From positions 1 through 29,596 of the IMG/VR virus record IMGVR_UViG_3300008255_004732: a stretch of DNA of 29,596 nucleotides. The stretch is one strand, 5' to 3'. Under the pieces are notes generated by a model. That model worked only from the letters and a program-made list of their open reading frames with translations, was not told the origin of the DNA and did no database searches. Positions 1 to 28,600 of this stretch are shown piece by piece; position 1 is the stretch's first letter; the number at the start of each line of letters is the position of its first letter. The DNA is from a virus (Duplodnaviria; Caudoviricetes). The position numbers and the translations under genes were made by a program.

Positions 1-606
1 ATGATAACTATATTTCACGGAGAAAATACATCTCTAAGTAAAAAAAAACTACAAGAAAAAATATCCAAAATTGACTCTCGATGGATTGATGGAAGTAATT
101 TAAACATTAACACAGCTAGTAACCTTCTCGAAGTTAATGACTTATTTGGAAACACAAAAACCATAGTTATTTCAAACTATTTTAATATTAAATCTAGAGA
201 CTTATCGCAAATAAGCACAATAATAAAAAATAAAAGCACCGACATTGATATATACATGTGGCAGAGCAAGAAACTGACATTAAACCAAATTAAAATGTTT
301 CCTGACGCATCTGTCCATTGTTTTAATAAAAGCAACAGCGTGTTTGATTGTATATATTCCCTTAAACCTGGCAATACTAACCAGTTCATTGTCCACTATC
401 AAAACGTAGTTGAAGATAATATGTTTGATCTATTTCTGTATCTCGTCAAAAAAGAAGTTAAGAAAAAAATTAGTAACCCTAAATATAAAAAAACGTATTT
501 AAGTTTAATCGAACTAGACTTGTTAAACAAAACCGGAAAACTCGCTATAAAGAAAGAAACCGCCTTAAAGAGAACTCTTCTTCCTATCACCAAGAAAAAT
601 CTATAG
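1..606 (+). CDS. DNA polymerase III delta-like protein (short HolA-like)
   Basis: N-terminal 'MITIFHGEN', 'DLFGNTKTIVISN' and C-terminal 'LIELDLLNKTG' resemble the HolA pattern; shorter than canonical HolA. Confidence 0.55.
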   Translation: MITIFHGENTSLSKKKLQEKISKIDSRWIDGSNLNINTASNLLEVNDLFGNTKTIVISNYFNIKSRDLSQISTIIKNKSTDIDIYMWQSKKLTLNQIKMFPDASVHCFNKSNSVFDCIYSLKPGNTNQFIVHYQNVVEDNMFDLFLYLVKKEVKKKISNPKYKKTYLSLIELDLLNKTGKLAIKKETALKRTLLPITKKNL

Positions 607-641
607 TATTTTACATAAATATAGTCTATTATTTAAATATA

Positions 642-989
642 ATGACTAGCAGAAAAATACTAAAACCTTGGGGTAGCGAATTAAAATTCACAAAAAAATC
701 TTTACCTTACACCGGTAAAATAATCACCATAAAGAAGGGTAAAAGAATTTCACTTCAAAAACATTCTCAAAAAACTGAAACAATTCTATTACAGAAAGGT
801 GAGTCTTTATTAAGAATTGGCGACAAAGAAGTAAGAATGAAACCAATGTTCGGATACACTATTAAAAAAAACGTAGTTCATAGACTAACAGCCATCGAAA
901 CATCCCAACTAATCGAAGTCTCTACACCGGAAAAAGGAACAACCTTTAGAATTGAAGATGACTACAACAGAAAAAATGAAAAATTATAA
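642..989 (+). CDS. Cupin domain protein (mannose-6-phosphate isomerase type II C-terminal-like)
   Basis: 'KPWGSE', 'SLQKHSQKTET', 'VHRL' and 'EVSTPE...RIEDDY' cupin motifs. Confidence 0.8.
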   Translation: MTSRKILKPWGSELKFTKKSLPYTGKIITIKKGKRISLQKHSQKTETILLQKGESLLRIGDKEVRMKPMFGYTIKKNVVHRLTAIETSQLIEVSTPEKGTTFRIEDDYNRKNEKL

Positions 990-1004
990 TAAATTAAAAA
1001 CAAA

Positions 1005-3272
1005 ATGAAAAATATATTGTGGTTTAAAGAAGTAGGTACAGATGATATTGCTCACGTAGGTGGAAAAGGAGCAAATCTTGGAGAAATGTTCAAAATAGGT
1101 ATTCCCGTACCAAACGGATTTATAGTTACTGCAGACGCTTATTTCAATTTCATTAAAACAAATAAACTAGAAGAACCTATTAAAAGTATTTTAAAAACCA
1201 CAGATATAGACGACCCAAATCAACTTCTTTCCTCTAGCAACAAACTTAAGTCTCTAATTGTAAAATCTAAAATACCCACTGATATTGCAAGGGACATAAT
1301 GACCTCTTACAAAAAAATGTGTTCTTACGCAGGTTTAAAAAATACCCCGGTAGCCGTAAGATCTTCTGCCACAGCTGAAGATTTACCAGACGCCTCTTTT
1401 GCTGGACAACAAGAAACTTACCTCAATGTTGAAGGTGAATCTAACGTAATAAAAAGAGTTCAAGATTGCTGGGCTTCAATATTTACCCCTAGAGCTATTT
1501 TTTACCGAGAAAAAAAACATTTTGATCACTTGAAAGTAGGTGTAGCAGTACCTGTGCAGAAAATGATTAATTCAGATGTTTCTGGAATAGCCTTCTCAAT
1601 TAATCCAATAACAAACAACAAGAATCAAATAATAATCGAAACAATTTGGGGATTGGGAGAATATATCGTACAAGGAGTAGTAACTCCTGATCAACACGTA
1701 GTAGATAAAATCAATTGGGAAATTACTAGTCATAATAAAAATGAACAAAAAACACAGTTAATTAGAGCAAAGAGCGAAACTGCAAAAGCTTCTGTACCAA
1801 AATACAAACGAAACAAAACAAAATTAAGCGATGAACTAGTAATTAAACTTGCCAAAATAATTCAAAAACTTCAAGACCATTACAAAAAACCACAAGATGT
1901 AGAATTTGCTATCAAAAACAACAGTATCTTTATTGTACAAACAAGACCAATAACAACCATTGTTTCCAACAAACAAATAATTGATAAGCAGCAGTCCATT
2001 GATAAAAAAGAAGATATCCTAGGAGATCCAGCTAGTCCAGGAACATCTTCTGGAATTGTTGTAGTAATCAAATCTCCAAAAGAAATTAACAAGGTTAAAG
2101 AAGGACAAATACTCGTCACAGACATGACCACACCAGACTTTGTCCCGGCAATGAAAAAAGTAGCTGGAATAATAACGAACAAAGGTGGTCAAACATCTCA
2201 CGCAGCCATAGTATCTAGAGAATTAGGCGTTCCCTGTATTGTCGGAACAAAAAACGCAACGAAGTTGCTAAAAAATGGTGATATGGTTACGATTGATGGA
2301 ACCCAAGGCAAAGTGTGGAAAGGAGATCTGGTTGATAAGTCTATGACCCCCACAACTAAAAAAGAAAGTACGAAAAAAACTGCAACGAAAGTGTACTGTA
2401 ACCTAGGGGAACCAGATCTTGCCAAAGAAATCTCAGAAAGAAATGTTGACGGTATAGGGTTGTTGCGTGCAGAATTTATGATTGCCAATATTGGAATTCA
2501 TCCAAAAAGAATTATTTCAGAAAATAATCAGAAACTGTATATAAACAAATTATCTAAAGAAATTAAAAAATTCTGCGAAAGTTTCTCTCCTAGGCCTGTT
2601 ATATACAGGGCCACCGACTTTAAAACCAATGAATACAGACATTTAAAGTGGGGCAAGTTATACGAACCGATCGAATCAAATCCAATGCTAGGTTTTCGTG
2701 GAGCATCAAGATATATCAGCTCTCAAGATATCTTTAAAATGGAAATTGAAGCAATAAAAACAGTTAGAGACAAGTATGGCTACAAAAATCTATCCTTAAT
2801 GATACCTTTCGTCAGAACACCTCAAGAACTTGTGCAGGTAAAAAAAATTCTACACCAAAATGGACTGGTAAGATCACCCACATTCAAATTACTAATGATG
2901 GTTGAAATACCAAGTAACATCATATTGCTTGAAAAATTTATCGATGTCGGGATTGATGGAATATCAATCGGCAGCAATGATTTAACAATGCTCATACTTG
3001 GTATCGACAGAGATAACAGTGAAGTCGCAAGCTCGTTCAACGAAATGGACCCAGCAGTTTTATGGGCAATTAAGAAAGCAATTGTAACTTCAAAAAAGAG
3101 AGGTATTACAAGTTCAATTTGTGGACAAGCTCCGAGCAACCATCCTGAATTGGTAGAGAAACTAGTCAAATGGGGTGTTACTAGCATTTCAGTTTCACCT
3201 GACGCTATAACAAGAACTCGGGAAACTGTTTCCTGGGCCGAAGAAAAAATCGCATCTACAAAAAAACGATAA
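1005..3272 (+). CDS. ppsA: Phosphoenolpyruvate synthase
   Basis: 'VGGKGANLGEM', 'VAVRSSATAEDLPDASFAGQQETYLN', phospho-His motif 'GGQTSHAAIVSRELG', 'GIGLLRAEF', 'NPMLGFRG', 'SIGSNDLT', 'ICGQAPS'. Confidence 0.96.
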   Translation: MKNILWFKEVGTDDIAHVGGKGANLGEMFKIGIPVPNGFIVTADAYFNFIKTNKLEEPIKSILKTTDIDDPNQLLSSSNKLKSLIVKSKIPTDIARDIMTSYKKMCSYAGLKNTPVAVRSSATAEDLPDASFAGQQETYLNVEGESNVIKRVQDCWASIFTPRAIFYREKKHFDHLKVGVAVPVQKMINSDVSGIAFSINPITNNKNQIIIETIWGLGEYIVQGVVTPDQHVVDKINWEITSHNKNEQKTQLIRAKSETAKASVPKYKRNKTKLSDELVIKLAKIIQKLQDHYKKPQDVEFAIKNNSIFIVQTRPITTIVSNKQIIDKQQSIDKKEDILGDPASPGTSSGIVVVIKSPKEINKVKEGQILVTDMTTPDFVPAMKKVAGIITNKGGQTSHAAIVSRELGVPCIVGTKNATKLLKNGDMVTIDGTQGKVWKGDLVDKSMTPTTKKESTKKTATKVYCNLGEPDLAKEISERNVDGIGLLRAEFMIANIGIHPKRIISENNQKLYINKLSKEIKKFCESFSPRPVIYRATDFKTNEYRHLKWGKLYEPIESNPMLGFRGASRYISSQDIFKMEIEAIKTVRDKYGYKNLSLMIPFVRTPQELVQVKKILHQNGLVRSPTFKLLMMVEIPSNIILLEKFIDVGIDGISIGSNDLTMLILGIDRDNSEVASSFNEMDPAVLWAIKKAIVTSKKRGITSSICGQAPSNHPELVEKLVKWGVTSISVSPDAITRTRETVSWAEEKIASTKKR

Positions 3273-3894
3273 CTATCTCTCCTTTGTCGATATAAGAATC
3301 AGAAGGATCTTCAACGACTTCGTTCTTTTTCGTCATGTTTCTACAAACACGGATTTCAGCCCCCTCAAAAACCAATCTTATATCACTTAACGTTTTTGAT
3401 ACTCTATAAGGGGACTCAAAGCAAACCTTAATTCCGTCGATGTCCTTATATTTCTCCAATAACTTGATTCTCTGACCAGATTTCTTTGGGAGAAAACCTA
3501 AGAAGGAAAACTTTGAAACCGGAAGACCGGACAGTACAACAGCATTTATTACAGAACTAGCTCCAGGCAAAGAAGTATAGGGAAGATTTTCTGACTGGCA
3601 TTTTCTTACTAATAACCACCCAGGATCAGAAATAAGTGGAGTACCTGCGTCACTAACCAAACCCACTTTCTTATTATCTTTCAAATAAGACACAACCTCA
3701 GGAATTTTAGAAGACTCTACTTCTTCATAAAAAGAAATCAACTTGGGTTTATTCACTATTCCAAGTTTATTTAAAAGCACGCCTGTTACACGAGTATCTT
3801 CACATAAAAGATAATCTAGGTTTTTTAGCAATTCAATTGCTCTCAAACTAATATCGCCAATATTCCCAATTGGAGTAGAAATAATGTAAAGCAT
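3256..3894 (-). CDS. rsmI: 16S rRNA (cytidine1402-2'-O)-methyltransferase
   Basis: 'LYIISTPIGNIGDISLRA', 'CEDTR', 'LVSDAGTPLISDPG', 'FLGFLP', 'FESPYR', 'GEIVIV'; 3' end overlaps ppsA by 17 nt. Confidence 0.95.
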   Translation of the reverse strand: MLYIISTPIGNIGDISLRAIELLKNLDYLLCEDTRVTGVLLNKLGIVNKPKLISFYEEVESSKIPEVVSYLKDNKKVGLVSDAGTPLISDPGWLLVRKCQSENLPYTSLPGASSVINAVVLSGLPVSKFSFLGFLPKKSGQRIKLLEKYKDIDGIKVCFESPYRVSKTLSDIRLVFEGAEIRVCRNMTKKNEVVEDPSDSYIDKGEIVIVFL

Positions 3895-3967: not shown

Positions 3968-4216
3968 ATGTTTGATGCAAGTATATATCAAAGTAGATCA
4001 GAATACCAGAAGTTGGCTGATAATTTTCGCCCAAACTTCAACGTAAACAAACATTTGCAAATTGCAGATGAATATTTCAATCAGGGCATCAGGTCCTACA
4101 ATATCCTAGCTAGAAAACACGAGTGCAGTCCCACACGAATAAAGAAGATTCTAGAAGCCTTCCAAGAAAAAATATTGCCTGTTATTAACAGCATTAAAGA
4201 GGAGGATTCAAGATGA
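3968..4216 (+). CDS. Small phage protein, possible helix-turn-helix DNA-binding domain
   Basis: 'SYNILARKHECSPTRIKKIL' has HTH spacing; its stop overlaps the next start (ATGA). Confidence 0.5.
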   Translation: MFDASIYQSRSEYQKLADNFRPNFNVNKHLQIADEYFNQGIRSYNILARKHECSPTRIKKILEAFQEKILPVINSIKEEDSR

Positions 4217-4847: not shown

Positions 4848-5039
4848 ATGAACATAACGCACATAAACAAGGAAATGATCCAGATAGCAGAAAGGTATGG
4901 TGTAGATCCTCAAGATCTATGTCCCATCTGTTTTGGAATCATGGAAACAAAGTGGGAAAACAACGGGTTCAATTCACCCGAACCAACTCACTACGAAATT
5001 ACTAATTCAACCTGTAGCACTTGTGGCTACACAGCATAA
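4848..5039 (+). CDS. Small zinc-ribbon protein
   Basis: CPIC...CSTC; ATG at 4848 preferred over the track start, which lies inside the previous gene. Confidence 0.55.
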   Translation: MNITHINKEMIQIAERYGVDPQDLCPICFGIMETKWENNGFNSPEPTHYEITNSTCSTCGYTA

Positions 5040-5041
5040 CT

Positions 5042-5776
5042 ATGAAAAACAAGCAACTGTCCTTAAGAAAAAATTATTTTAATCCAACAGTCTGGCAACA
5101 GATGAAGGTAATGTCAGAGACATTAATACAGTCAAAGGCAATGCCTAAGAGCATTCAAAACGCACCACAAGCCATTATGATAATGCAAGCAGGGTACGAG
5201 ATGGGAATGAAGCCCCTCCAGGCACTGCAGGGTCTTACCATCATTAATGGAGTCATCACTACTCACGGAAAAGAAACCATAAGAAGACTTAGAGATCATG
5301 GATGGAAGATTAAATATGAAGAAAAGGAAAACGAGTGCACCGCTACCGTCACTAAAGAAAGAGAGAGCTACACCGATACCTTTAAATTTTCGGATGCCGA
5401 AAAATCAAAAAGGACCTGGAGCTACAGAAAAGACCAAAACGGATCTTATGTTAAGGACAGTAATGGATTTAAAAAAGATCTCAAGCCTGGGTGGTATGAG
5501 GGAGAGAATAGAACCGTAAAACTTAGATATGGAGTAATTTCAAAAATTCTCAAAACCTATATACCAGAGGTATTAGGAAGTGCTTCTGAGATAACTGAGA
5601 TTGCAGAAGACTATCCAGTGGATGACATTCCAACAATCGTAGAAAAAAAGGCAGATGAGGGTGTCATAGTTTCCGCTCAGAATGATAGACCAGATCTTGA
5701 ATCATTCATTGCAAACGCAAAAGCGAGAAAAGAAAGTCTGGGGAAAAAAGAAGTTAAGACGGAGGAGGTAAAGTGA
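5042..5776 (+). CDS. RecT/Red-beta-like single-strand annealing protein
   Basis: 'AGYEMGMKPLQALQGLTIINGVITTHG' and 'YIPEVLG...EIAED' resemble RecT-like proteins; sits directly upstream of a nuclease gene. Confidence 0.6.
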   Translation: MKNKQLSLRKNYFNPTVWQQMKVMSETLIQSKAMPKSIQNAPQAIMIMQAGYEMGMKPLQALQGLTIINGVITTHGKETIRRLRDHGWKIKYEEKENECTATVTKERESYTDTFKFSDAEKSKRTWSYRKDQNGSYVKDSNGFKKDLKPGWYEGENRTVKLRYGVISKILKTYIPEVLGSASEITEIAEDYPVDDIPTIVEKKADEGVIVSAQNDRPDLESFIANAKARKESLGKKEVKTEEVK

Positions 5777-7659
5777 ACAAAATCAGTCTGCCTATAGACC
5801 ACATCTCATATTCTGCCCTAAGGTCATTCTGTAGTAACCAACAAAATTTCTTCAAGCACTACATCCTCAGAATCTACGACGAGAAATCAAGTCCTTCAAT
5901 GGTAGTTGGAAAGTGTGCTCACCACTGTCTCGATGTTTACTATAAAACCGGTGACTTCGAAAAAGGTGTCAAAGAAGGAATGGATTTAATGGATAAAACT
6001 CCTAGCCAAAAAATTGATTTTGGCAAAACAGGATCCAGAGAGAAAATGATTAAGGATTATCATCAAGCTCTCCAATTCTATAGGCATGAAAAACCAGACT
6101 TAGGAAAAGTAATAGCCACTGAAGACGTTATTGTCACAGACAAGGGCTTTGATGGACTGTTACCTTTGCCAATTAAAGTGGTAAGCGACGTTGTTTCAGA
6201 GAGAAACGGCAAGTTAGTTATTTCGGACTATAAATTCACCGACAAGATTGTAAGCCCAGACGAAGAGAACGCAAATTTTATAGTCCAAGCAATGTTTAAT
6301 TATATTGGTGTCAAAGCTAAATATAATAAAGAGCCAGACTGTATGGACTTTATACAGATCAAGAAAAGTCGAAATAGCGATGGCTCTCCGCAAGTAGTCA
6401 TTTACACCATAGATTTTAAGAAACACCCAGAATATCAAAGCTACTTTAACCAACTATATGCAGATGTTTTGTATACGATAGCTGATCCTAATCACAAATA
6501 TTTACCTAACTTTGGGGATATGTTAAACGGTGAAGCAAGTTGGAAGGACTACACAAGTGAGATTGTAGATCAATCATCTCTTAAGAAGGTTAGCCATATG
6601 AGTCATCTACAAAAAAGTGAGAGGATGGTTCAGTTTGTAGAGTCAAGCTTGGAATCAGATCAAACATTAAGTAATGAGGACAAAATTAGGGTGAAATTAC
6701 AAGAATTCGGTATCCCGGTTCAAATGGAAGAGACCTACAAAGGTCTAAACGTAACACTTTACACAATGAAGCCATCAAGGGGGATAAGAATGAGTCAATT
6801 CCTGAATCATGCTCCGGACGTTGCTCTTGCTTTAGAAGCTAAGAGCGTAAGAGTTCAAGCACCTATTCCAGGAACGGGGTTAGTTGGTTTTGAAATATCG
6901 AATGAGGAACAAGGAATTGCCAAATGGAGCAAGGATGTTCTTAACAATGGAACACTAAAAATTCCAGTAGGAGTAGATGTTTATGGAAAAACCACGTACC
7001 TGGATCTGTCAAAAGCCCCACACTTAATGATTGGAGGAACAACCGGTTCAGGTAAGTCTGTATTCATGAATGTGCTTATAAGCACATTGATTAAACAGAA
7101 TACTTCTGATGACCTGCAGCTTGTCTTAATAGATCCTAAGAGAACCGAATTTTCCAATTTCAGTGATGAGAAACATCTCGTGGGTGGAGTCATAACCGAA
7201 ACAGAAGATGCAGATATTACTCTTGAGTGGGCAGTAGAAGAAATGGAGAGACGATACAAACAACTCCAAAGAGCAAAACTAAAAACCATCCAAGACTATA
7301 GAAAAAATTATCTAGATATGCCCTATATTATCATTGTAATAGATGAACTGGCCGACTTAATGTTATCTGGAGATCTCAAGGCAAATATTGAGAAAAAGAT
7401 AGTTAGGTTAGCTCAAAAAGCTAGAGCCGTAGGTATTCACTTAGTGGTAGCCACTCAAAGACCATCCGTAGACGTCATCACAGGGCTTATAAAAGCTAAT
7501 TTTCCATCAAGAGTTAGTTTCATGGTTTCTTCTTCTACTGATTCCAGAGTCATCTTAGATGAGGTAGGCGCTGAAAAGTTAATGGGCAACGGAGACCTAC
7601 TTTTAATGAATCCAAGAAATCAAGGATTAGAACGCTTACAAGGTTATTACCTAGACTAG
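5773..7659 (+). CDS. Fusion of N-terminal PD-(D/E)XK nuclease and C-terminal FtsK/SpoIIIE motor (alpha and beta domains)
   Basis: N-terminal 'HISYSAL', 'GKCAHHCL', 'SDVV...ISDYKF', 'Q...Y'; FtsK-alpha 'DVALALEAKSVRVQAPIPG...GFEISN'; Walker A 'GGTTGSGKS', 'IDPK', Walker B 'IIIVIDELADLM', 'ATQRPSVDVITG', 'GAEKLMGNGD'. Confidence 0.88.
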   Translation: MNKISLPIDHISYSALRSFCSNQQNFFKHYILRIYDEKSSPSMVVGKCAHHCLDVYYKTGDFEKGVKEGMDLMDKTPSQKIDFGKTGSREKMIKDYHQALQFYRHEKPDLGKVIATEDVIVTDKGFDGLLPLPIKVVSDVVSERNGKLVISDYKFTDKIVSPDEENANFIVQAMFNYIGVKAKYNKEPDCMDFIQIKKSRNSDGSPQVVIYTIDFKKHPEYQSYFNQLYADVLYTIADPNHKYLPNFGDMLNGEASWKDYTSEIVDQSSLKKVSHMSHLQKSERMVQFVESSLESDQTLSNEDKIRVKLQEFGIPVQMEETYKGLNVTLYTMKPSRGIRMSQFLNHAPDVALALEAKSVRVQAPIPGTGLVGFEISNEEQGIAKWSKDVLNNGTLKIPVGVDVYGKTTYLDLSKAPHLMIGGTTGSGKSVFMNVLISTLIKQNTSDDLQLVLIDPKRTEFSNFSDEKHLVGGVITETEDADITLEWAVEEMERRYKQLQRAKLKTIQDYRKNYLDMPYIIIVIDELADLMLSGDLKANIEKKIVRLAQKARAVGIHLVVATQRPSVDVITGLIKANFPSRVSFMVSSSTDSRVILDEVGAEKLMGNGDLLLMNPRNQGLERLQGYYLD

Positions 7660-7693
7660 CAGGTCGTTAGGTGTTGTAGAGGAGCCCAACACA

Positions 7694-8557
7694 ATGAAAT
7701 CAAAAAAACCATTTATCAAATTTAACTCTCAAAACGAAAAGGTATCACTTTTGTTAGCTAGGAGACCACAAGCATTTGCTCTATTGGCTCTAATAGCTAA
7801 GAGAGCAAAAAGAAACGATGATCCGTCTACTGGACTAAAAAAAGGAGAGGCCATTGTAAGCGATTTTAAGTCTTATGGAGCAACCCGTCAGTCACACAAA
7901 ACTAACCTCTCAACTCTAAAAATCAATCAACAAATAACCACTCGAATAGTCAGACTATCAACCAGTCAAGTAACTGTGGCTAAACTGGTAAGTAAGGATA
8001 TTTTTGATATTAACCTAGATATTGATAACCAGTCAACCAAACAGTCGACTAATCTCTCACCAACCAGTGAAGTCAAAAAATCAATCCCTCACCATGCTGT
8101 CAACCAACCACAAACTAAGAATATAAGAAATAAAGAAAAAGAATATAAGAATACAAAGGCAATAGAAATTTTCATATCTCACTTTAACGACAAATTTGGA
8201 AGTTCTCACAGAGTTCTCGACGGCAGAAGGATGAAGTTAGGTTCTAGGTTGAAAAAATTTAGTCTAGAAGAAATGCTCCGTGCAATAGACAACTGTTCCA
8301 AAGATAGGTTTTGTCGTGGGGAGAATGATAGAAGGTGGATCGCTAACCCAGATTATCTTCTTAGAAGTGACGAGCAGATAGACAAATGGTTAGTAACCAA
8401 GAACGATCTTAAACGCCCACAGAGTAACTTACCAAGCGAAGTGCCTAAACAGACTCCAGAGGAAAAGAAGATGGCTCTGGAAGCTCTTGAAAGAGTCCGG
8501 CAGGCCACTAGTTTTCTAGCAAGTTCAAAATCAGTTAATAATTTATCATCAAAATGA
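7694..8557 (+). CDS. Phage replication initiator-like protein
   Basis: N-terminal winged-helix-like region, S/T/Q/N-rich linker encoded by repeats, and C-terminal 'FCRGENDRRWIANPDYLLR' typical of phage replication proteins. Confidence 0.7.
   Translation: MKSKKPFIKFNSQNEKVSLLLARRPQAFALLALIAKRAKRNDDPSTGLKKGEAIVSDFKSYGATRQSHKTNLSTLKINQQITTRIVRLSTSQVTVAKLVSKDIFDINLDIDNQSTKQSTNLSPTSEVKKSIPHHAVNQPQTKNIRNKEKEYKNTKAIEIFISHFNDKFGSSHRVLDGRRMKLGSRLKKFSLEEMLRAIDNCSKDRFCRGENDRRWIANPDYLLRSDEQIDKWLVTKNDLKRPQSNLPSEVPKQTPEEKKMALEALERVRQATSFLASSKSVNNLSSK
7960..8151. repeat. Iteron-like repeats plus AT-rich repeat; candidate phage replication origin
   Basis: AACCAGTCAA at 7960 and 8027, AACCAGTGAA at 8062, further CAACC units up to 8110, then AAGAATATAAGAA at 8117 and 8139. 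Confidence 0.6.
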
Positions 8558-8844: not shown

Positions 8845-8950
8845 AACTTTCTACAAAAAACAGGTTTTATCGAAATCAGAGATTCACCTTTCACTGTTAG
8901 CACTAAACCTTTCTCTAATAATTTTAATTATTACCTTGATAAGAAAATGA
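8831..8950 (+). CDS. 39-aa single-transmembrane peptide (not in ORF track)
   Basis: AGGAG upstream; MKKIRTFYKKQVLSKSEIHLSLLALNLSLIILIITLIRK; stop overlaps the next ATG and fills the gap exactly. Confidence 0.55.
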   Translation: MKKIRTFYKKQVLSKSEIHLSLLALNLSLIILIITLIRK

Positions 8951-9417
8951 TTAAACTTGGAAAGTGGTCGAAAATCAACCTAGAGGCAAATAGAGAGATT
9001 GCCAGGATTCGCTCCGAAAAGCATATTCATTCTTGTGAAATAAAACTAGATGAAAGGTGCTGGGGAAATACAGAAAACCATCCTTGCCATAAACACAAGA
9101 GGAATTGGTACAAGAGTGCCCCTTACCTTCTTTCTGATTACTCCCAATGGGTAATCGGATGCCCATATTGCCATGACATTATTGAAAAAGATCCGGAATT
9201 AACGCAGAAAGTCTTTAAGAGACTTAGACCAAAAACTTTATCAGAGCTTAATATTAAATCCAAGACAAAAGAATATATGAAAAATAAAACAAAACTTCCA
9301 AAGGCAACAGCACAAAAAAATAAAAAGGCAGACTGGATGAGAGAACACAAATGTATCAACTGCAAGAAGACACTCACAGGATTACTTTGTACCTGTGGGA
9401 AATTATCTGTTAAATAA
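8947..9417 (+). CDS. HNH/His-Cys nuclease-like protein with C-terminal zinc ribbon
   Basis: 'CEIKLDERC', 'HPCHKH', 'GCPYCH'; C-terminal CxxC...CxC. Confidence 0.55.
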   Translation: MIKLGKWSKINLEANREIARIRSEKHIHSCEIKLDERCWGNTENHPCHKHKRNWYKSAPYLLSDYSQWVIGCPYCHDIIEKDPELTQKVFKRLRPKTLSELNIKSKTKEYMKNKTKLPKATAQKNKKADWMREHKCINCKKTLTGLLCTCGKLSVK

Positions 9418-14639: not shown

Positions 14640-15188
14640 ATGGATAACAAAATAGACTTCCCAAGAGTAGGAAGGCCACCCAAATTCAAAACAGTAGAGG
14701 AGTTTCAAGACAAGATAGCTGAGTACTTTAGGTCATGTTGGACACAAAAAATTGATATGTACGGCAATCCAGTGTTCGAAAAGGATAACAAAGGTATTAA
14801 AACAGAAGAGAGAGTAATGGTTCAAACAAAACCTTATACAATAACTGGTCTCGCAGTATTTCTCGGTACTACACGTGATTTATTACTTGATTATGAGAAA
14901 AAGAAGAAGTATTCCGACACGGTAAAAAGAGCTAAGAGTATCATTTATGCCTACGCAGAGGAGTTTTTATATTCTGGCAAGAACCCTACCGGAGCAATCT
15001 TCAACCTTAAGTACAACTGGAATTGGAGTGAAAAAACAGAAATTGACTTAACAACAAATGGAGAATCCATATTACAAAATATTTCAGATGAAAAACTTGA
15101 CCAACTCATCCAATCCAAGATCACAAAACTTGGTATTAATGGAGCTATTGAAGGAGAAGGAAAGAAGGATGGCACTAAATCCTCTTAA
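14640..15188 (+). CDS. terS: Terminase small subunit (P22 gp3-like DNA packaging protein)
   Basis: 'GRPPKF...YF', 'PYTITGLAVFLG', 'GAIFNLK'; directly upstream of TerL. Confidence 0.85.
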   Translation: MDNKIDFPRVGRPPKFKTVEEFQDKIAEYFRSCWTQKIDMYGNPVFEKDNKGIKTEERVMVQTKPYTITGLAVFLGTTRDLLLDYEKKKKYSDTVKRAKSIIYAYAEEFLYSGKNPTGAIFNLKYNWNWSEKTEIDLTTNGESILQNISDEKLDQLIQSKITKLGINGAIEGEGKKDGTKSS

Positions 15189-16608
15189 GTATCTCCAACA
15201 GCACCAAAAACAATACGAGGCCTCTTGTTCTGATAGATCAATAAGAGCTCTATTTTGGGGTAACCGTGTTGGAAAGACAGAGTGGGGAGGTCAAGAAACT
15301 GCTAGATACGTAACACCAGAGGCTCCTCTTGAAGTAGAAGTGATTGGTAAGGACAAGATTAGCCTTGGAAAAAAACCACTACCAAAGAGACCTAGACTGG
15401 GACCAGCAGAGATTTGGGTGGGATGTCCATCATTCGATTTGCAGAAAGATACTACCCAGAAGAAACTACAAATGTACCTTCCAAAAGAATCAATAGCACA
15501 TATAACCTATCTTAGGGGAGAAATATGGAAGGATGTTAGGCTAAAGACTGGAGACATTATCACCATGAAATCCTATGAACAAGGAAGAGAGAAGTGGCAG
15601 GGTGCTGGTAAGAGAGTTATCTGGTTTGATGAAGAGCCACCATATGACATTTGGGAGGAAGCTTCTGTGAGACAGGAAGCGGGTATTCCACTAGATATCA
15701 TTCTTACAATGACAGCTATTAAGGGTATGACTTGGGTCTACAACAAAATCTACCTTGCTACTAATAATCCTGATATTTATAGATCAGAAGCAGGGTGGGA
15801 TGATAATCCTTGGCTAACAGAAGATCAGAAAGAAAAAATGAGCCGTGGTAAGAGTAAAGAAGCTATTCTAGTACGTAAAGAGGGTAAATTCATTAAAAGA
15901 GTTGGGTTAATATGCCCATGGTTCTCGCAATCAACACACGTGAGACACTACGACACTCTAGATAGAAGCTGGACATGGTTTGACATCATTGACGGAGGAT
16001 TTAGCGATCCTCTTGCATACTTACTCATGGGTGTAGACGGAGATAACAATGTGCACTTCGTTAAAGGTTTCAGAGAACCCGGATTATTGACATCAGAGAT
16101 TAAGGCCAAAAGAGATGCTATCGTGTCAGGACTCACCATCAACGGAGGATTCTGTGATAACGACAACCCTAGATTAATGGAAGAGTTAAATGAAGGTGGC
16201 ATGAACCTAGTAGCTGTTGAGAAAAAACCAGGAGAAACAAAGAGTTGGGATGAAACTTTGGCCGAGAAACTAGCAGAGTATGGCCAAATACAGAAGGGGA
16301 CTGGTACGCCCAGATTATACATTTCAGACTCACTGATAAAGACAGACGAAGAGACTGGAGATGACTACAACTGGTTGCAACAAGAAATAGAGAACTTGAC
16401 TTGGTTAGAGGTCAGGTCAGGTGACGGGGAAGAAACTAGACCTACTTGGAATGACCATAGAAAGTTTGGACACCATTTTGACGGTGTTAGGGCCGTTGCT
16501 TATGGACTTATGAGCTATATTAAAGATATTAGTAGTGATCCAGACAGAGACCGAAAAGCAAGAGAGGCCGCTAGAGAGATTATGAAACAAATGAGGGGGT
16601 ATTACTAA
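15139..16608 (+). CDS. terL: Terminase large subunit (start uncertain: 15058, 15088, 15139 or 15169)
   Basis: Walker A 'GNRVGKT', 'SYEQGREKWQG', Walker B 'IWFDEEPP', 'DNPWL', RNase H-like 'IDGGFSDP' and 'HHFDGVR'. Confidence 0.92.
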   Translation: MELLKEKERRMALNPLKYLQQHQKQYEASCSDRSIRALFWGNRVGKTEWGGQETARYVTPEAPLEVEVIGKDKISLGKKPLPKRPRLGPAEIWVGCPSFDLQKDTTQKKLQMYLPKESIAHITYLRGEIWKDVRLKTGDIITMKSYEQGREKWQGAGKRVIWFDEEPPYDIWEEASVRQEAGIPLDIILTMTAIKGMTWVYNKIYLATNNPDIYRSEAGWDDNPWLTEDQKEKMSRGKSKEAILVRKEGKFIKRVGLICPWFSQSTHVRHYDTLDRSWTWFDIIDGGFSDPLAYLLMGVDGDNNVHFVKGFREPGLLTSEIKAKRDAIVSGLTINGGFCDNDNPRLMEELNEGGMNLVAVEKKPGETKSWDETLAEKLAEYGQIQKGTGTPRLYISDSLIKTDEETGDDYNWLQQEIENLTWLEVRSGDGEETRPTWNDHRKFGHHFDGVRAVAYGLMSYIKDISSDPDRDRKAREAAREIMKQMRGYY

Positions 16609-17092: not shown

Positions 17093-17159
17093 TGTTATAA
17101 TTTTATTAGTTATCGTAACCAAATTTAGGGCGATCCCGCTTAAAGGGGTCGCCTTTTTT
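17093..17159 (+). promoter_or_regulatory. Leader element copy 1: extended -10 promoter, CGTAACC hairpin, overlapping terminator
   Basis: TGtTATAAT (17093-17101); ATCG-TAA-CC-aaattta-GG-G-CGAT; terminator AGGGCGATCCC/GGGGTCGCCTT with a 6-T run. Confidence 0.75.
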
Positions 17160-17166
17160 GTTGTCT

Positions 17167-19014
17167 ATGTCAGAAAAAATATCAAAACTAGTAGATCTTT
17201 ATCAGAACGATTTATCAGCTATTGAACTAACACATCAATCTTTTGATGAAAAAGAAAAGGTGTTGATGAGTTCTAGTGTTGACCAAATAACAGAAAAAGA
17301 AACCAGATCAAAAGTAACGGATCCTACCATGTTATCAGCCGTGCTTAAGCAAAATAATCAGGTCATGGCGCAAATGCCGTCTGGTAAGGTAACAGCCCTA
17401 ACCAAAGAAAATAAAGGTAAATCGGCTTTCATGGATGTAATCCTCCACAATCACATTTTACCTAACGCAAATAGTCAGTACGATCCATTCACCAAATTTT
17501 GGATGCTTTCCTTCTATAGGAAGGTGTACGGTTCTTTTGGTGTGTTGGTCGATTTCATGACTAATAAAAGTTATACTGGTCCTGATTTCACACTGTTACC
17601 AGCCAGATCAATTATTCCTCAGTCAGGAAAGGTGACGGTGGAAGATAGTGATAGGTTATGGGTAAGGTCTAGGGTAAGCAAAAGTTGGCTAGAGGATAGG
17701 GATCCAAAATACTGGAAAAATATTGACAAGATATTAGAAACTAAAGGTGATTCTTTTGATACAAATGCCCAAAGTTACGTAGAAAGGTCAAACAGTGGAA
17801 TAATGGTTAAGAAGGACGAGTTTGAATTAGTGACTTGTTATGAAGGTGACAGGTGGAGAACATTTCATGCAGCTACTAAGACGGAAATAAGAGACCTTGA
17901 TAAGTCAAAGGGTGATAACAAGATCCCTGTGGTTATGTGCCACTCATACCCATTACTCGATAGATTTTTTGGATTAGGTGATTTTGAAAGAGGTATGACA
18001 CTCCATTCCTCTCTTGGAAGTTTGATAAACCTTTACATGGATGGTGTGAAAATGGGTATATTCCCGCCAACTAAGGTAGATCCATCAATGGTGGAGAATT
18101 GGGATGATTTTAAGGATGGCGTAGGACCTGGGCAAATATATCTAATGAGAAAGTCTAACTTTGACGGTATCGAACAAATGACCGTCAATCCTTCTGGTAT
18201 CCAGTCATTTCAATCAACGTACCAATTCCTCAAGGCAGCTATTTTAACTGTTACCAATACTAGCGATACTAGTATCTCTCAGAAAATGGATCCTGGATTT
18301 GGAAAGACTCCTCAAGCACTTAAAATGCAAGCGTTCTCTCAGGGAATGCAGACTCAATTTGACAGAAGAATGCTAGAACTCAGTGTGGAGAAGATTTACG
18401 ACAGAATGATAGATCTTGTAGCCAGAAGACAGGAAAAACCAATGGAAATGTTCCTCAAGGGAGCAGATTTAGAGAAAATTAAGTCAATAAATCCTGATGT
18501 TGTCGAAATGTTCGAAGTCGGAGATATGGGCAAGGTTAAAATTAAACCACAAGACGTCAATAATGTAGAGTATCGTTATGAAATAGATCAAGGTTCCACC
18601 ACCAAGAAAGATGAGATGTTGGAAAACTCAACCCTCAGTGAAGTCTTGGCCTTTGTTGCCAAGATACCAGGCGCTATGGAGCTACTAGCCACCGGAAAGA
18701 GGCTTCCTCTTGGAAAGAATAAATCTCTTGATCTAGGTGAGCTGGTACAAAGATGGATGATTTCTGGAGGGACAACCGATTGGGATAAAATTATCGTAGA
18801 TGACGCAGCCATGGACCCACAAGCAGAAGAAGGTGGTGAAGGAGAGCAAGTTCAGCAAGACCAAGATCTCAACATGGAAGACCCGAATATAGCAAACGTA
18901 ACTAATCAGGCGTTAAGAGGGGCCCCGGAACAAACTAATCAGCCTATCAATCTACAAGACCCGGCAATATCGCAGGCATTCTCAGAATTACAAAATTTAG
19001 GAGCTAACCAATAA
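17167..19014 (+). CDS. Portal protein (alternative TTG start at 17158)
   Basis: About 615 aa, between TerL and scaffold/coat; 'KVYGSFG', 'RFFGLG', 'GKTP..L', acidic Q-rich tail as in podovirus portals. Confidence 0.82.
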   Translation: MSEKISKLVDLYQNDLSAIELTHQSFDEKEKVLMSSSVDQITEKETRSKVTDPTMLSAVLKQNNQVMAQMPSGKVTALTKENKGKSAFMDVILHNHILPNANSQYDPFTKFWMLSFYRKVYGSFGVLVDFMTNKSYTGPDFTLLPARSIIPQSGKVTVEDSDRLWVRSRVSKSWLEDRDPKYWKNIDKILETKGDSFDTNAQSYVERSNSGIMVKKDEFELVTCYEGDRWRTFHAATKTEIRDLDKSKGDNKIPVVMCHSYPLLDRFFGLGDFERGMTLHSSLGSLINLYMDGVKMGIFPPTKVDPSMVENWDDFKDGVGPGQIYLMRKSNFDGIEQMTVNPSGIQSFQSTYQFLKAAILTVTNTSDTSISQKMDPGFGKTPQALKMQAFSQGMQTQFDRRMLELSVEKIYDRMIDLVARRQEKPMEMFLKGADLEKIKSINPDVVEMFEVGDMGKVKIKPQDVNNVEYRYEIDQGSTTKKDEMLENSTLSEVLAFVAKIPGAMELLATGKRLPLGKNKSLDLGELVQRWMISGGTTDWDKIIVDDAAMDPQAEEGGEGEQVQQDQDLNMEDPNIANVTNQALRGAPEQTNQPINLQDPAISQAFSELQNLGANQ

Positions 19015-20591: not shown

Positions 20592-21827
20592 ATGGCTAAT
20601 TCATTTACAACCGAACAGAAGGTAGCTAACGCTTTCCTTTTGCTCTTAAAAAATGCCCTTGTTATGGGCAAACTAGTTACTACCAAATTCGATAAAGAGT
20701 TTACTAACAGTGAAGTCGCAGTTGGCGATACTGTTAAAGTCAGAAGGCCTCCAGAATACACCGTCCGTGATGGTCGTGTAGCCAGTGCCCAAGACGTTAT
20801 CGTAGGTTCTGCAGATGTCACCATTGATAAGCAAAAAGGTGTTGATATCAGCTTTACATCCAAGGAAGAGACTCTCTCTGTAGACGAACTTCTAAAAGAT
20901 GAGAACTTAAAAGCTCAAGCTTCTGTCCTTGCTCAGCAAATTGATGAGGATTTAATCGCTCAAACGCTTAAATTCCCCAACTGGGTAGGTACTCCAGGTC
21001 AAACTGTTAGTACTGCCGCTAAGTTCTTTGCTGGTCCTCAACGCATGGATGAACTCGCAATCCCTCAAGAAGGTCGTGCTGCTGTCCTTTCACCTTCTGA
21101 TTACTGGGCTCTTGCCGCAACCTTCACAGGTCTAAACGCTTCTGATGGCACAGTTAAGACTGCTCTTGAGAAGGCTAAGCTTCCTATGCTTGGTAACTGC
21201 CAGCCTTACATGACCCAGAACGTGGTCAATTTGACTGTCGGTACTAGAACAGCCTCCGGTGCTGCAACAATCAATGGTGCAGACCAGAATGTTGCTTACG
21301 CAGACGTTAAAAGCACATACAAGCAATCTTTGTTACTTAAGACTTTAACTGCTGGTCACACCATTAAAGCTGGTGAGATCTTCACCATTGCTGGTGTAAA
21401 CGCTGTTAACCCAAGATCCAAAGCCGATCTCGGATACCTACAGCAATTCGTAGTTCTAGCCGATGCTACTGCAGATGGTAGTGGTTTAGCCACTGTCTCT
21501 ATCAGCAATCCTATTATCATTTCTGGTGCGTACAAGACTTGTACCGCTGCTCCTGCAAACGGTGCTGCTGTTACCTTCCTAGGTACTGCTTCTACCGCTT
21601 ATAGGCAAAATGCTGTCTTCCACAAGGGAGCCATTGCTTTAGTAGGTGCAAAACTAGTTACTCCTAGTGTAGGTAAAGTCGCTTTCGCTACTGATCCTGA
21701 AACTGGTATTAGCATCCGATACTGGAAGACCTCAGACGGTACCAATGACACTCATTTGAATCGATGTGATGTGTTATACGGAACTGCCTGTCTAGATCCT
21801 AGACTCGGTGTAAGATTAAGCGGCTAG
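20592..21827 (+). CDS. Major capsid protein, P22 coat (gp5)-like
   Basis: AAGGAG RBS; 'MANSF', 'GDTVKVRRP', 'GEIFTIAGV.AVNP', 'FHKGAIAL', 'RCDVLYG'. Confidence 0.9.
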   Translation: MANSFTTEQKVANAFLLLLKNALVMGKLVTTKFDKEFTNSEVAVGDTVKVRRPPEYTVRDGRVASAQDVIVGSADVTIDKQKGVDISFTSKEETLSVDELLKDENLKAQASVLAQQIDEDLIAQTLKFPNWVGTPGQTVSTAAKFFAGPQRMDELAIPQEGRAAVLSPSDYWALAATFTGLNASDGTVKTALEKAKLPMLGNCQPYMTQNVVNLTVGTRTASGAATINGADQNVAYADVKSTYKQSLLLKTLTAGHTIKAGEIFTIAGVNAVNPRSKADLGYLQQFVVLADATADGSGLATVSISNPIIISGAYKTCTAAPANGAAVTFLGTASTAYRQNAVFHKGAIALVGAKLVTPSVGKVAFATDPETGISIRYWKTSDGTNDTHLNRCDVLYGTACLDPRLGVRLSG

Positions 21828-25615: not shown

Positions 25616-28600
25616 ATGGCCAACTCGTTAGCAGACCTTATACAGAAGGTGAAAAAGTCGTGGCAGGATACTTTAGACAGTACCTCTATCGATGAACGTG
25701 TCTCTGGCCTTGTAAAAAGTCCCAAAAAGTACTTCACCGATCCTAACTATAATAAAGGTAATAACTTCTGGTCAGGTCCAGTAGCAGGTGCTGCTGCGGG
25801 AGTACAAAGAACCACTCAAAAACTAGAAAATATCCCCAGGATAAAGATACAAGCCCCTCAAGTAAAGACTGGTTCTAGAGCAGGTGACGTGGTCGTGAAT
25901 GCTATCCCTACACTACTTGCAGGAACAGCCGAGAGTATTGTAAACATTCCCGGTAACTACGTTAAAGGTGTTGCGAGAACAGGAAATTACATAGGAGAAA
26001 TGGCAAGAGGAGATTCTAAATTTGACGTAGGTAGATCAGTAAGGTCTATAGCTCCTGTGGCAGAATCAATCTTCGATGTCGCTTCCTTTGGAGTCGGAAA
26101 ACAGGCAGTTAAGAGCGCTGTTAAAGACCTAGGTAAAAAGACATTTACAAAAGCTGTGCTAGGTGGTGCCAAGCAAGGCGCTATTTATGGTGGAACCAGT
26201 GCTTTTCTTAGATCATCATCAGAACAGTCAAAAGAGGTCAACTGGAACGAAGTTTTTCAAGATACCCTCAGTGGAACTGTGGGAGGTGGTTTATTTGGTG
26301 GAGCACTAGGTGGTGCCTCTTTCGGACTGGGTGAAGCAAGAAAAATGCTCGCTAATAACTTAATGGAAAAAAATCCAAAAATGTCCGTCCAAGAAGCTCT
26401 AAAGAAAGTAGATGAGATACCAAGAGATCAGCTAGGTAGGTTCACAAAAAAGGCCGAACATAAAGTTAAATATCCAGGGTTAAGTGAAAGTGAATTTGCC
26501 GAAATTAAGGCATTTGAGAATAGAAGACTTGTGCAAGATCAGAATGGTAATTTGAGAGGTGTTGGTGGACAACCATCGATTAAATATGAACAAAACACTA
26601 ATCTAAAACAGGTTAAGCCTTTAGATGAGATGGGAACAGTCCTAAAGAACCCCAATAATAATAACTCTACCCCAGACTTAAGCAGATATAACTATTTATT
26701 GGAGAAAAATAAAAAAGCAGTACTGTCCCAACAGTCCGGAAAGATTGATCTTGACGCAAAAATAAGTTTAGGAAAAAATTCAAAATCCAAGACACAGGTT
26801 TCCACACCAAATAAGACAACCAAAGACCTGTTATTATCGCCACAAAATCAATCACAACCTAGTATATCTCAAAAAAAGATGAGTCTCACTCCCGACGGGA
26901 AAATCAAAATCAAGAGAAGTGGGGTGCAAGGTCCATATATAGACAAAAACGGAGAGCTTCAATTCCCCACAAACAAACAGTTCAATAAAGCTGTGCAAGT
27001 TGGAAATCCAGGCTATAACAAGTCAAAAGTTGCTCAACAGACATTTGAGGATGTTGATAACGCTGCAAACTTTGCACTACTTAAGGCAGAAGAGGACTCA
27101 CAATCGTTTAATAACATATTTGCCCAATGGGTAGGCAAAAGAGATTCTGCTAAAACTAAAGCGACTCGGGTAGCTTCTCAGTTCACAGAAATGCCAGGTA
27201 GGGATCCAGTCAAATTAATAAAAGCAATTGAAAATAAAGATGTCAAGGTTAGTGCTAAAGAACAAAAGTACATTGAGAATCTTCGTAAACAATACGATGA
27301 ATTATATAAATCTGCCAAAGAATCTGGCGTAGACATGAACTACGTTGAAGACTACTTAACTCACATCTGGGACAAACCTCTTTCGCAGGTCAAAACCGAA
27401 TACCAAACTGCCAAGCAAAAGTTTAAATTTGCATCAGAAAGAACGGTCCCAACATATGAAGAAGGAATCAAAATGGGACTAGTGCCAAAGTACAATAATC
27501 CAGCCCAAATATTAGAAGAATATATAAGAAGGCTAGAACAGACCAAAGCTAATATTGACCTGTTTAAACAACTTAAAAGAGAGGGATTAGTTGTGGGTGG
27601 ATCAAAGGTGTCAGGTAACCCAGAATTTGCAGCCATTAACGCTCCGGGTTTCCCAAAGGCTACATTCCAAATAGGGGGTAATCAGACTGTTATCAGTAAC
27701 TGGTTCGCACCTAAAAAAGTGGCCGATCAAATTAACCAAGTGTTCAGCCCTCAAGATTATGGAACTGTAGGAAAAATATTTAAAGCTGGTGCAAAAGCAT
27801 CCGGCGCTGTCCAAGATATAACCATGTCAGGCGGTCTACCAAAAACCCCATTAAACGCTTGGACTGTCGCACAGATCAACAAAGAAGTTTTGTCAGGAAG
27901 AATTAAATCGCCTGTTGCAAGCTTCTTTAGGTCCCTTAGTGGTAAAGCTTCTAATAAATATTTTGAAGAAAACGCTAACCAGATCATAAAAATGCAGGAA
28001 AGAAACATCCCTATCTCGACTACCTATGAAGTCAACAATCTTATTGATAAAGGAACGGTCAAGAATATTTTCGGAGAAGGTGTTTCCCAGAATTGGAACA
28101 AATTGATGAATGAACCAACTTTTAAAAGATTTATGCCCCAACTTCAAATTAACCTTTTTAACGATATTGAGTCTTCCTTATTAAAGTCCGGAAAAGGGGA
28201 GCAAGAAGCCGCCGACATTGCCGCAAAAGCTGTCAGAAACTTTTATGGAATTAAGGGGACTGATGCCATTGCCAAAAGTAATAGACTTGTGAGCGATGCC
28301 ATAACTACCGGTATATTTGCCCCAAGATACCGTGAGTCTATGATTAACTTCTGGGCAAACAATGTCAAAGCTCTAAAAAATCCTCTCGCACCTGAAAATA
28401 TAACCAACACTAAATTTGCTATCGGAGCCGTTATCACCTACCTGGCCATGAATGAAATAAATAAGTCGAACACAGGTAAGAATATGTGGGAAAACCCATC
28501 AGGGAAAGAAGACAAAATGCTAGTAAAGACAGATGAGGGCTATATGGGAGTACCTTTCTTATCATCTATAGCCACTATGCCTCGTTTTGGAGCAAAGCTT

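Follow-up and report, generated by a model that had tools for sequence, protein, structure and literature searches.

Recombineering is built on phage pairs of an exonuclease and an annealase. The classical exonucleases of the Red and RecET type have no need of ATP and draw their processivity from a ring of their own, and to our knowledge all characterised exonuclease partners of phage annealases work without ATP. The motors of RecBCD, AddAB, AdnAB and Dna2 are superfamily 1 (SF1) helicases which unwind DNA, with the nuclease located C-terminally in RecB and AddA/AddB. HerA-NurA is a cellular system linked to Mre11-Rad50 rather than to an annealase, and the fold of NurA differs from the RecB/Cas4-like one. 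The locus compared here with these systems lies on the provirus record IMGVR_UViG_3300008255_004732 of IMG/VR (29,596 bases, estimated completeness 85%; the whole stretch is called the window below), which derives from an aquifer metagenome. In this locus, a gene for a RecT/Red-beta-like single-strand annealing protein (annealase) is followed by a gene whose product joins a RecB/Cas4-like PD-(D/E)XK nuclease and an FtsK motor in one chain. Judged from its sequence, structure models and gene neighbourhood, the fusion protein is probably an ATP-driven exonuclease partner of the annealase, resembling HerA-NurA in its way of working.

The fusion gene and its annealase partner

The initial annotation described the 628-residue product as an N-terminal PD-(D/E)XK nuclease followed by FtsK alpha and beta domains, lacking a transmembrane anchor and ending before the gamma domain, and all of this held in the follow-up. 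Pfam PDDEXK_1 (PF12705) matched residues 10-233 (E 6.9e-10, 39.7 bits with a gathering score of 22), FtsK_alpha (PF17854) residues 292-377 (E 1.2e-17, 64.4 bits with a gathering score of 22.9) and FtsK_SpoIIIE residues 392-566 (E 1.3e-44, 152.8 bits with a gathering score of 24). In PHROGs the protein was recognised as FtsK/SpoIIIE-like at 2.1e-92, and its N-terminal part matched the 'exonuclease' families phrog_1218 and phrog_69. FtsK_gamma (PF09397), the C-terminal winged-helix domain by which cellular FtsK reads KOPS and activates XerD, and FtsK_4TM were both missing from the 11 Pfam families listed for the window scan; the same scan detected PF09397 in 8 of 13 relatives from viral contigs that consist of the motor only. 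No membrane-like segment was present in the fusion protein, the highest 19-residue Kyte-Doolittle mean being 1.33, at the Walker B strand. The chain terminates with RLQGYYLD, short of the last beta-domain helix and the gamma domain, and the fusion-family profile aligned to Pseudomonas aeruginosa FtsK (2iuu, E 2e-108) only up to the vicinity of residue 445 of the 491-residue construct.

That the fusion might have been created by assembly, the objection foreseen at the outset, was ruled out by more than 100 full-length homologues together with two other contigs crossing the domain junction. A 4519-nt contig assembled independently from run X1 (perhaps the source sample itself) covered positions 5000-7780 without any difference, and a contig from another sample (X3, record 11) was identical over 6435-6690, spanning the entire inter-domain linker. 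The best 120 homologues listed by a word-indexed search were mostly 586-699 amino acids (aa) long (one had 436 aa), and most of them covered 93-100% of the query at 42-76% identity, the window's own product excepted; PF12705 occurred together with FtsK domains in 101 of these 120 according to a manual count, and many of them were located on contigs of 30-45 kb. The full-length AlphaFold2 (AF2) model, with a mean predicted local distance difference test score (pLDDT) of 89.2 and a predicted template modelling score (pTM) of 0.54, consisted of two confident domains separated by disordered residues 272-291.

Conservation was scored in 36 diverse full-length homologues (42-76% identity), in which the nuclease had a mean pairwise identity of 0.43, the motor one of 0.54-0.55 and the link one of 0.35. 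The residues E117, D139, D152, K154 and Q172 of the N-terminal domain (N-domain) were invariant in this set and also in a second one of 33 N-domains from viral loci. In the model, D139 is situated on strand 2, D152-x-K154 on strand 3 and Q172 in the following helix, an arrangement which we take to be the PD-(D/E)XK core of D, (D/E)xK and a Q-helix motif. The proposed nuclease fold was recovered when the N-domain was modelled alone (AF2, pLDDT 90.8, pTM 0.88): its best Foldseek matches among solved structures were all RecB/Cas4-family nucleases at E 1e-6 to 1e-3, namely the Argonaute-associated Cas4-family ACE1, the putative exonuclease 3l0a, the nuclease domains of AdnA/AdnB, MGME1, RecE (3h4r), AddB, Dna2, Cas4 and Exo5. 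By sequence, the N-domain profile gave no match to solved structures at E<=10. No alignment column reached 50% Cys across the 36 homologues, and the four cysteines of an iron-sulphur cluster were accordingly not found to be conserved.

The motor was matched by Foldseek to the FtsK proteins of E. coli (2ius) and P. aeruginosa with E-values of about 1e-34 and a TM-score of 0.77 normalised to the target, and the fold alignments gave 37-39% identity to both. Among NCBIfam models, the cellular FtsK equivalog PRK10263 scored 236.8 bits, with a cut-off of 1566, and the HerA models 20-21 bits, with cut-offs of 800-970. The Walker A and Walker B motifs and the arginine region with TQRP were without exception invariant, and with the intact and invariant catalytic residues of both the nuclease and the ATPase, both halves of the fusion look active from sequence. 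The stretch aligned to residues 262-296 (6556-6660) had 33-42 residues in 36 of 36 homologues, although it was the least conserved in sequence, and this near-constant length of the tether suggests a geometric constraint.

The start codon of the fusion gene overlaps the stop codon of the upstream gene, as had been noticed initially, the two reading GTGA in the sequence; for the upstream gene an alternative start, TTG at 5021, is possible. A family profile (A3) made of its product and 11 relatives from equivalent positions had lambda Red-beta (7ujl, E 0.0049) as the best solved match, which covered the conserved W..P.RMLR.K region, and Pfam RecT was matched by 5 of these 12 family members, at best with 2.1e-6. 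On this basis the product was accepted as a divergent annealase of the RecT/Red-beta superfamily.

The association of the two genes was followed in IMG/VR, where 554 of 599 pattern-matching stretches encoded a relative of the whole protein, motor-only proteins included. Eighty loci were kept, comprising 60 full-length matches, 4 cut by contig ends and 16 motor-only; after calling open reading frames (ORFs), the nearest upstream genes were dereplicated into 30 representatives and scanned against PHROGs. Twenty-five of them were annealing proteins, belonging to three groups (phrog_561/4171, phrog_148 and phrog_2780/252), while in the five remaining cases another gene, such as a methylase, intervened. 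When searched with hidden Markov models built from the three groups, 58 of the 59 loci containing a full-length fusion ORF showed a same-strand upstream annealase ORF, the 59th beginning 42 bases from the contig end with no upstream DNA, and none of the 16 motor-only FtsK loci did. The link to an annealase gene that had been noticed in this window is nearly universal among the fusion loci examined and specific to them.

A separate exonuclease was absent from the same surroundings: the flanks of 31 dereplicated loci held 139 further ORFs of 160-450 aa, not one of which matched a PD-(D/E)XK or YqaJ-type exonuclease family at E<=1e-6, although a single RNase_T and a single endonuclease VII were present, and no second Red/RecE-type exonuclease turned up in the Pfam and PHROG scans of the window. 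With an annealase upstream and no other exonuclease, the fusion fills the exonuclease place of Red/RecET-type modules. The downstream genes of the 31 relatives were variable, most of them having no match; DnaD-like or initiator genes stood next in four (L001, L007, L009 and L046), RusA, HNH and WhiB in single loci, and the DnaD/O-like neighbour of the window was thus not conserved.

Two further observations were made in these loci. Of 25 annealases, five had the motif [IV][IV]EGE within their last 70 residues (L009, L034, L033, L055 and L058, there in the last 17 residues), with all three families represented, compared with 0 of 166 other ORFs; the motif was absent from the window annealase. 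Its probable coding, GAAGGAGAA (inferred from codons), resembles the ribosome-binding site of the fusion gene, and the motif may be either a docking peptide or a mere footprint of the ribosome-binding site of the next gene. Just downstream of the fusion, one relative had a KwaB-like gene of the Kiwa defence type (L043:8984-9949) and another a gene for a WhiB-like regulator (L067:8841-9128), the latter hinting that some members of the family infect Actinobacteria.

Family distribution and surroundings in the window

A FastTree phylogeny included 153 motor domains: 57 from fusions, 18 labelled as motor-only and 78 cellular; three of the 18 turned out to be fusions truncated at a contig end. The 57 fusion motors and these three truncated ones all formed a single clade with a Shimodaira-Hasegawa-like support of 100. 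The annealase family changed along the motor tree at least four, at least six and at least two times for the three groups, respectively, indicating repeated swapping of partners. Since the root of this tree could not be placed, no donor of the motor is named.

Among 50,697 deposited phage records no match covered 80% of the fusion protein; 423 matching records contained motor-only FtsK-like genes and belonged chiefly to Bacillus and Mycobacterium phages. The fusion family is, consequently, found wholly in uncultured viruses. In one of 64 parts of the genome contigs scanned, 80 of 80 loci were motor-only and dominated by cellular FtsK. The N-domain occurred within a 731-aa frame in 2 of 401 genomes of the class to which a Saccharibacteria genome belongs. 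One of the motor-only genes without an annealase belongs to Mycobacterium phage LittleE, a phage of about 110 kb (L168, positions 97290-101101 of the record). Four small genes lie between it and a gene for a Ku-like end-binding protein, and it stands directly before the recombination directionality factor gene, another possible link of phage FtsK motors to DNA ends.

An exhaustive search with the N-domain profile recovered 1918 representatives at E<=0.001 and 172 at E<=1e-30. The best 150 consisted of 59 full fusions, 65 proteins without a motor whose length of 230-345 aa fits a stand-alone nuclease (at least two are truncated fusions), 8 partial sequences with a motor, 8 fragments and 10 of other lengths. 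Viral contigs searched for the stand-alone form yielded two loci, at least one of them being the known fusion contig of L017. Longer proteins with the N-domain were not found at 1e-5, a negative of little weight. In ten Patescibacteria genomes (L173-L182) the nuclease profile matched the first 160-200 residues of 947-1123 aa frames at E 1e-11 to 1e-14; these frames may encode cellular proteins that combine a helicase with a related nuclease at the N-terminus.

The features of the window are collected in Table 1. The first phage genes appear near 3968, directly past the TP_methylase-family host gene. The PpsA protein of the host flank had 56-57% identity to its best matches and was matched in 255 of 401 genomes of Patescibacteria, the only phylum searched, so that a host from this phylum is tentatively compatible with the sequence. 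No integrase was detected among the scanned ORFs of this 85% complete record, and its gene may be located beyond the end of the window. The ORFs of the small and large terminase (TerS and TerL) as listed share 131 bases (15058-15188), the real TerL start being probably further downstream than listed. Right behind TerL, a 618-aa ORF (17158-19014, plus strand) had no family match in Pfam and PHROGs, and its position suggests a divergent portal protein. A Cys/His-rich 156-aa ORF at 8947-9417 (plus strand) was without a match in Pfam, PHROGs and NCBIfam, and an ORF of at least 1327 aa at 25616-29596 (plus strand), continuing past the window end, was without a match in Pfam or PHROGs; judged by position, the latter presumably encodes a tail or host-contact protein.

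Table 1. Positions of the fusion gene, its parts and other features in the window
Feature	Position	Strand	Basis or remarks
Host flank	1-3894		Cupin protein, phosphoenolpyruvate (PEP) synthase/pyruvate phosphate dikinase (PPDK)-type enzyme (1005-3272), TP_methylase-family gene (minus strand)
Single-strand annealing protein gene, divergent RecT/Red-beta superfamily (predicted)	5042-5776	+	244 aa from ATG 5042
Coupling junction	5761-5776	+	Shine-Dalgarno-like GGAGGAGG 5761-5768; GTG 5773-5775 over TGA 5774-5776
Nuclease-FtsK fusion gene	5773-7659	+	GTG start, 628 aa plus stop
RecB/Cas4-like PD-(D/E)XK nuclease domain, residues 1-271	5773-6585	+	Pfam, AF2, Foldseek
Invariant nuclease residues	E117 6121-6123; D139 6187-6189; D152-x-K154 6226-6234; Q172 6286-6288	+	
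Flexible tether, residues 272-291	6586-6645	+	pLDDT below 50
FtsK alpha domain, residues 292-377	6646-6903	+	PF17854, Foldseek to 2ius
FtsK beta (RecA-like ATPase) domain, residues 378-628	6904-7656	+	Pfam, invariant motifs
Walker A, G422-S429	7036-7059	+	G422-x-T-G-x-G-K-S429, invariant (36 homologues)
Walker B, D524-E525	7342-7347	+	Invariant (36 homologues)
TQRP motif, residues 561-564	7453-7464	+	Invariant (36 homologues)
DnaD-like helicase loader or O-like replication initiator	7694-8557	+	phrog_10469 1.8e-9, phrog_345 3.7e-5; next early-module gene
TerS, small terminase	14640-15188	+	phrog_606 1.4e-29, PF16677
TerL, large terminase	15058-16608	+	phrog_2 2.7e-15, Terminase_6N
P22-type coat protein	20592-21827		

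Proposed mechanism and alternative roles

According to a passage in PMC7321959, the alpha-beta part of FtsK is a hexamer on duplex DNA, which passes from the beta ring to the alpha ring. The fusion motor would likewise form a hexameric ring on double-stranded DNA. Without the gamma domain, the ring would have no means of recognising loading sequences, and ends or breaks in the DNA would be its loading sites. Because FtsK pumps DNA from the beta to the alpha ring and the tether joins the N-terminus of the alpha domain, the nucleases hanging from it would be positioned at the DNA exit, in the place taken in cellular FtsK by the linker and membrane anchor. One strand would be digested while the duplex is being fed, probably the 5' strand as in the nearest structural relatives, and the annealase would then cover the surviving 3' single strand, for use in recombination, in circularising the genome or in replication that depends on recombination. 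The end-resection role suggested in the initial annotation is supported by the sequences and models. The wider proposal, that these proteins make up a widespread, so far undescribed class in which an FtsK ring threads a DNA end and pumps the duplex into six tethered RecB-like nucleases in the service of at least three unrelated-looking annealase families, is put forward tentatively, as a conjecture with nearly even prospects.

Several points weigh against the proposed exonuclease partnership. The weak point of the mechanism itself is that FtsK translocates on duplex DNA without unwinding it, whereas RecB-type nucleases usually cut single strands, so that the model does not account for the action of such a nuclease on the emerging duplex. 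The window annealase on its own gave weak RecT-like matches (phrog_561 1.5e-5, phrog_4171 1.1e-4), and some of the loci examined are near-duplicates of one another, such as those forming a group of 14. The N-domain had no match among deposited phage proteins in tblastn at E<=0.01. The only stand-alone nuclease homologue with inspected surroundings, G539 from a Patescibacteria genome, had HisRS, thioredoxin, a Na/H exchanger and sigma-70 as neighbours and no annealase, and with such housekeeping surroundings a descent of the N-domain from a Red-type exonuclease is not demonstrable; a 'Rosetta stone' relationship, with a stand-alone nuclease beside an annealase, was likewise not upheld. Finally, fusions of a restriction endonuclease (REase) domain with FtsK occur in defence proteins too, as described in part of PMC10853773, and in PADLOC the motor matched SspH at 1.5e-56.

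Among the other roles considered, a shredder of host or competitor DNA, in which the motor would reel in host or rival-phage DNA for destruction by the nuclease, resulting in host shut-off and nucleotide salvage, fared best and still appears unlikely. A fast duplex translocase tethered to a nuclease with intact motifs would fit bulk degradation, the PHROGs class of phage FtsK-like proteins is 'moron, auxiliary metabolic gene and host takeover', and T7 gene 6 exonuclease provides a parallel in which host DNA breakdown coexists with a role in recombination. Salvage would be valuable for small-genome hosts, maybe poor in nucleotide synthesis, and both the two fusion-bearing genomes of the Saccharibacteria-containing class and the similarity of the host flank to Patescibacteria genes point tentatively to such hosts. 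However, shredding leaves the 58 upstream annealases of three families and the start/stop overlap without explanation, no self-protection factor was identified, and the gene is located in a replication and recombination module.

This location would also suit a processor of replication intermediates or concatemers acting independently of the annealase, with the motor tracking phage DNA and the nuclease trimming branches, ends and stalled forks. The window gene is placed between the annealase and the DnaD-like/O-like initiator, as it is next to initiator-like genes in the four relatives mentioned above, and no phage helicase was detected in the Pfam and PHROG scans of the window. Yet it is the annealase that is conserved and not the downstream replication genes, the nearest nuclease folds are those of end-resection enzymes rather than branch nucleases, and some relatives have a separate gene for RusA or endonuclease VII, which makes this role quite improbable.

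The SspH match, together with that to mad8 (3.6e-33), raises the question whether the phage carries a module for defence or exclusion of the 'HerA/FtsK capture' type, similar to DndH/SspH, in which the motor would engage foreign DNA and the REase-fold domain would cut it. A passage in PMC10853773 describes DndH proteins with REase and HerA/FtsK in one polypeptide, including versions bearing the FtsK alpha domain. The match to SspH is, however, limited to the motor (profile positions 1525-1736 of 1766), the 628-aa protein comes without DndF/G partners and without SNF2 or helix-turn-helix modules, the fusion motors form their own clade with the annealase as fixed partner, and the gene resides in an early replication/recombination block instead of a variable defence island, leaving little probability to a defence role. 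A role as ATPase for DNA packaging, already dismissed in the initial annotation, or for DNA segregation, with the nuclease domain a decayed remnant, can be practically discarded: membrane-containing phages do package DNA with FtsK/HerA-class ATPases according to a literature passage, but this phage has separate TerS and TerL genes and a P22-type coat protein, and the nuclease motifs are invariant, hence not decayed.

Should the fusion indeed act as exonuclease for the annealase, the resection of DNA ends would here be solved in another way, with the fastest known pump for duplex DNA as its drive, and the HerA-NurA design would have arisen anew from other components. Some of the FtsK-like proteins of phages, which are poorly understood, would gain a function, a passage in a 2013 phage genome paper stating that the role of its FtsK gene was not known. 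If the wider proposal of a class serving several annealase families holds as well, these proteins would offer a motor-driven counterpart of Red/RecET that is portable, and a candidate tool for recombineering in bacteria that are uncultured or difficult to engineer.

Comparison with described systems

Full-text literature searches returned no description of a compact phage-borne fusion coupled to an annealase, although earlier work might still mention such an architecture. The domain fusion as such is not new, since REase fusions with HerA/FtsK of the DndH type are already in print, in the part of PMC10853773 concerned with them. The same source mentions 'HerA/FtsK capture' proteins, some of which carry an FtsK alpha domain taken from cellular FtsK. 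Like DndH and SspH, the fusion has a domain of the restriction-endonuclease fold on the same polypeptide as a HerA/FtsK ATPase, but in contrast to these large multidomain products of host defence operons (SspH profiles have 1561-1766 positions), it is compact, phage-borne and partnered with an annealase; PADLOC had no match among the genes neighbouring the fusion, DndF/G or SspF/G partners included.

The closest resemblance in gene organisation is to lambda Exo with Red-beta, RecE with RecT (Rac) and YqaJ with RecT, where an annealase gene likewise stands on the same strand beside a PD-(D/E)XK nuclease gene in the early region. The gene ends often overlap in these pairs, as do those of the fusion and its annealase, and in both one kind of nuclease partner is combined with changing annealase families; RecE was, moreover, among the fold matches of the N-domain. 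In contrast to the Red/RecET exonucleases, the nuclease of the fusion has a complete FtsK ATPase motor, and its N-domain lacks a sequence-level match to deposited phage exonucleases.

The parallel with HerA-NurA of archaea and Deinococcus, drawn already in the initial annotation, stood for the way of working and fell for the family. HerA-NurA has, and the fusion would have, a hexameric duplex translocase of the FtsK/HerA superfamily that feeds a nuclease at its exit face, and the HerA-NurA structure 9x1m was a weak fold match of its motor. In HerA-NurA, however, two proteins replace the one chain, the motor is of the HerA clade and not of the FtsK clade with an FtsK alpha domain, and the nuclease is NurA instead of a RecB/Cas4-like PDDEXK_1 domain.

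RecBCD, AddAB, AdnAB and Dna2 share with the fusion the combination of a RecB/Cas4-family nuclease and an ATP motor in one chain, which in their case serves DNA-end resection. The nuclease domains of AdnA/B, AddB and Dna2 were among the best fold matches of the N-domain, and Dna2 weakly matched the whole fusion model. The fusion differs from all four in its FtsK-clade, ring-forming duplex pump and in the N-terminal position of the nuclease.

Compared to cellular FtsK/SpoIIIE, with which it shares the alpha-beta motor, the fusion lacks the 4TM anchor and the gamma domain, and unlike the motor-only FtsK-like proteins of phages, of which 8 of 13 scanned kept gamma and all 16 were at loci without an annealase, it is gamma-free and annealase-linked. 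Sequence comparison places the fusion protein both in the FtsK motor family and among the PDDEXK_1 nucleases; it is neither an orthologue of cellular FtsK, nor Cas4, whose iron-sulphur cysteines it does not have, nor HerA-NurA.

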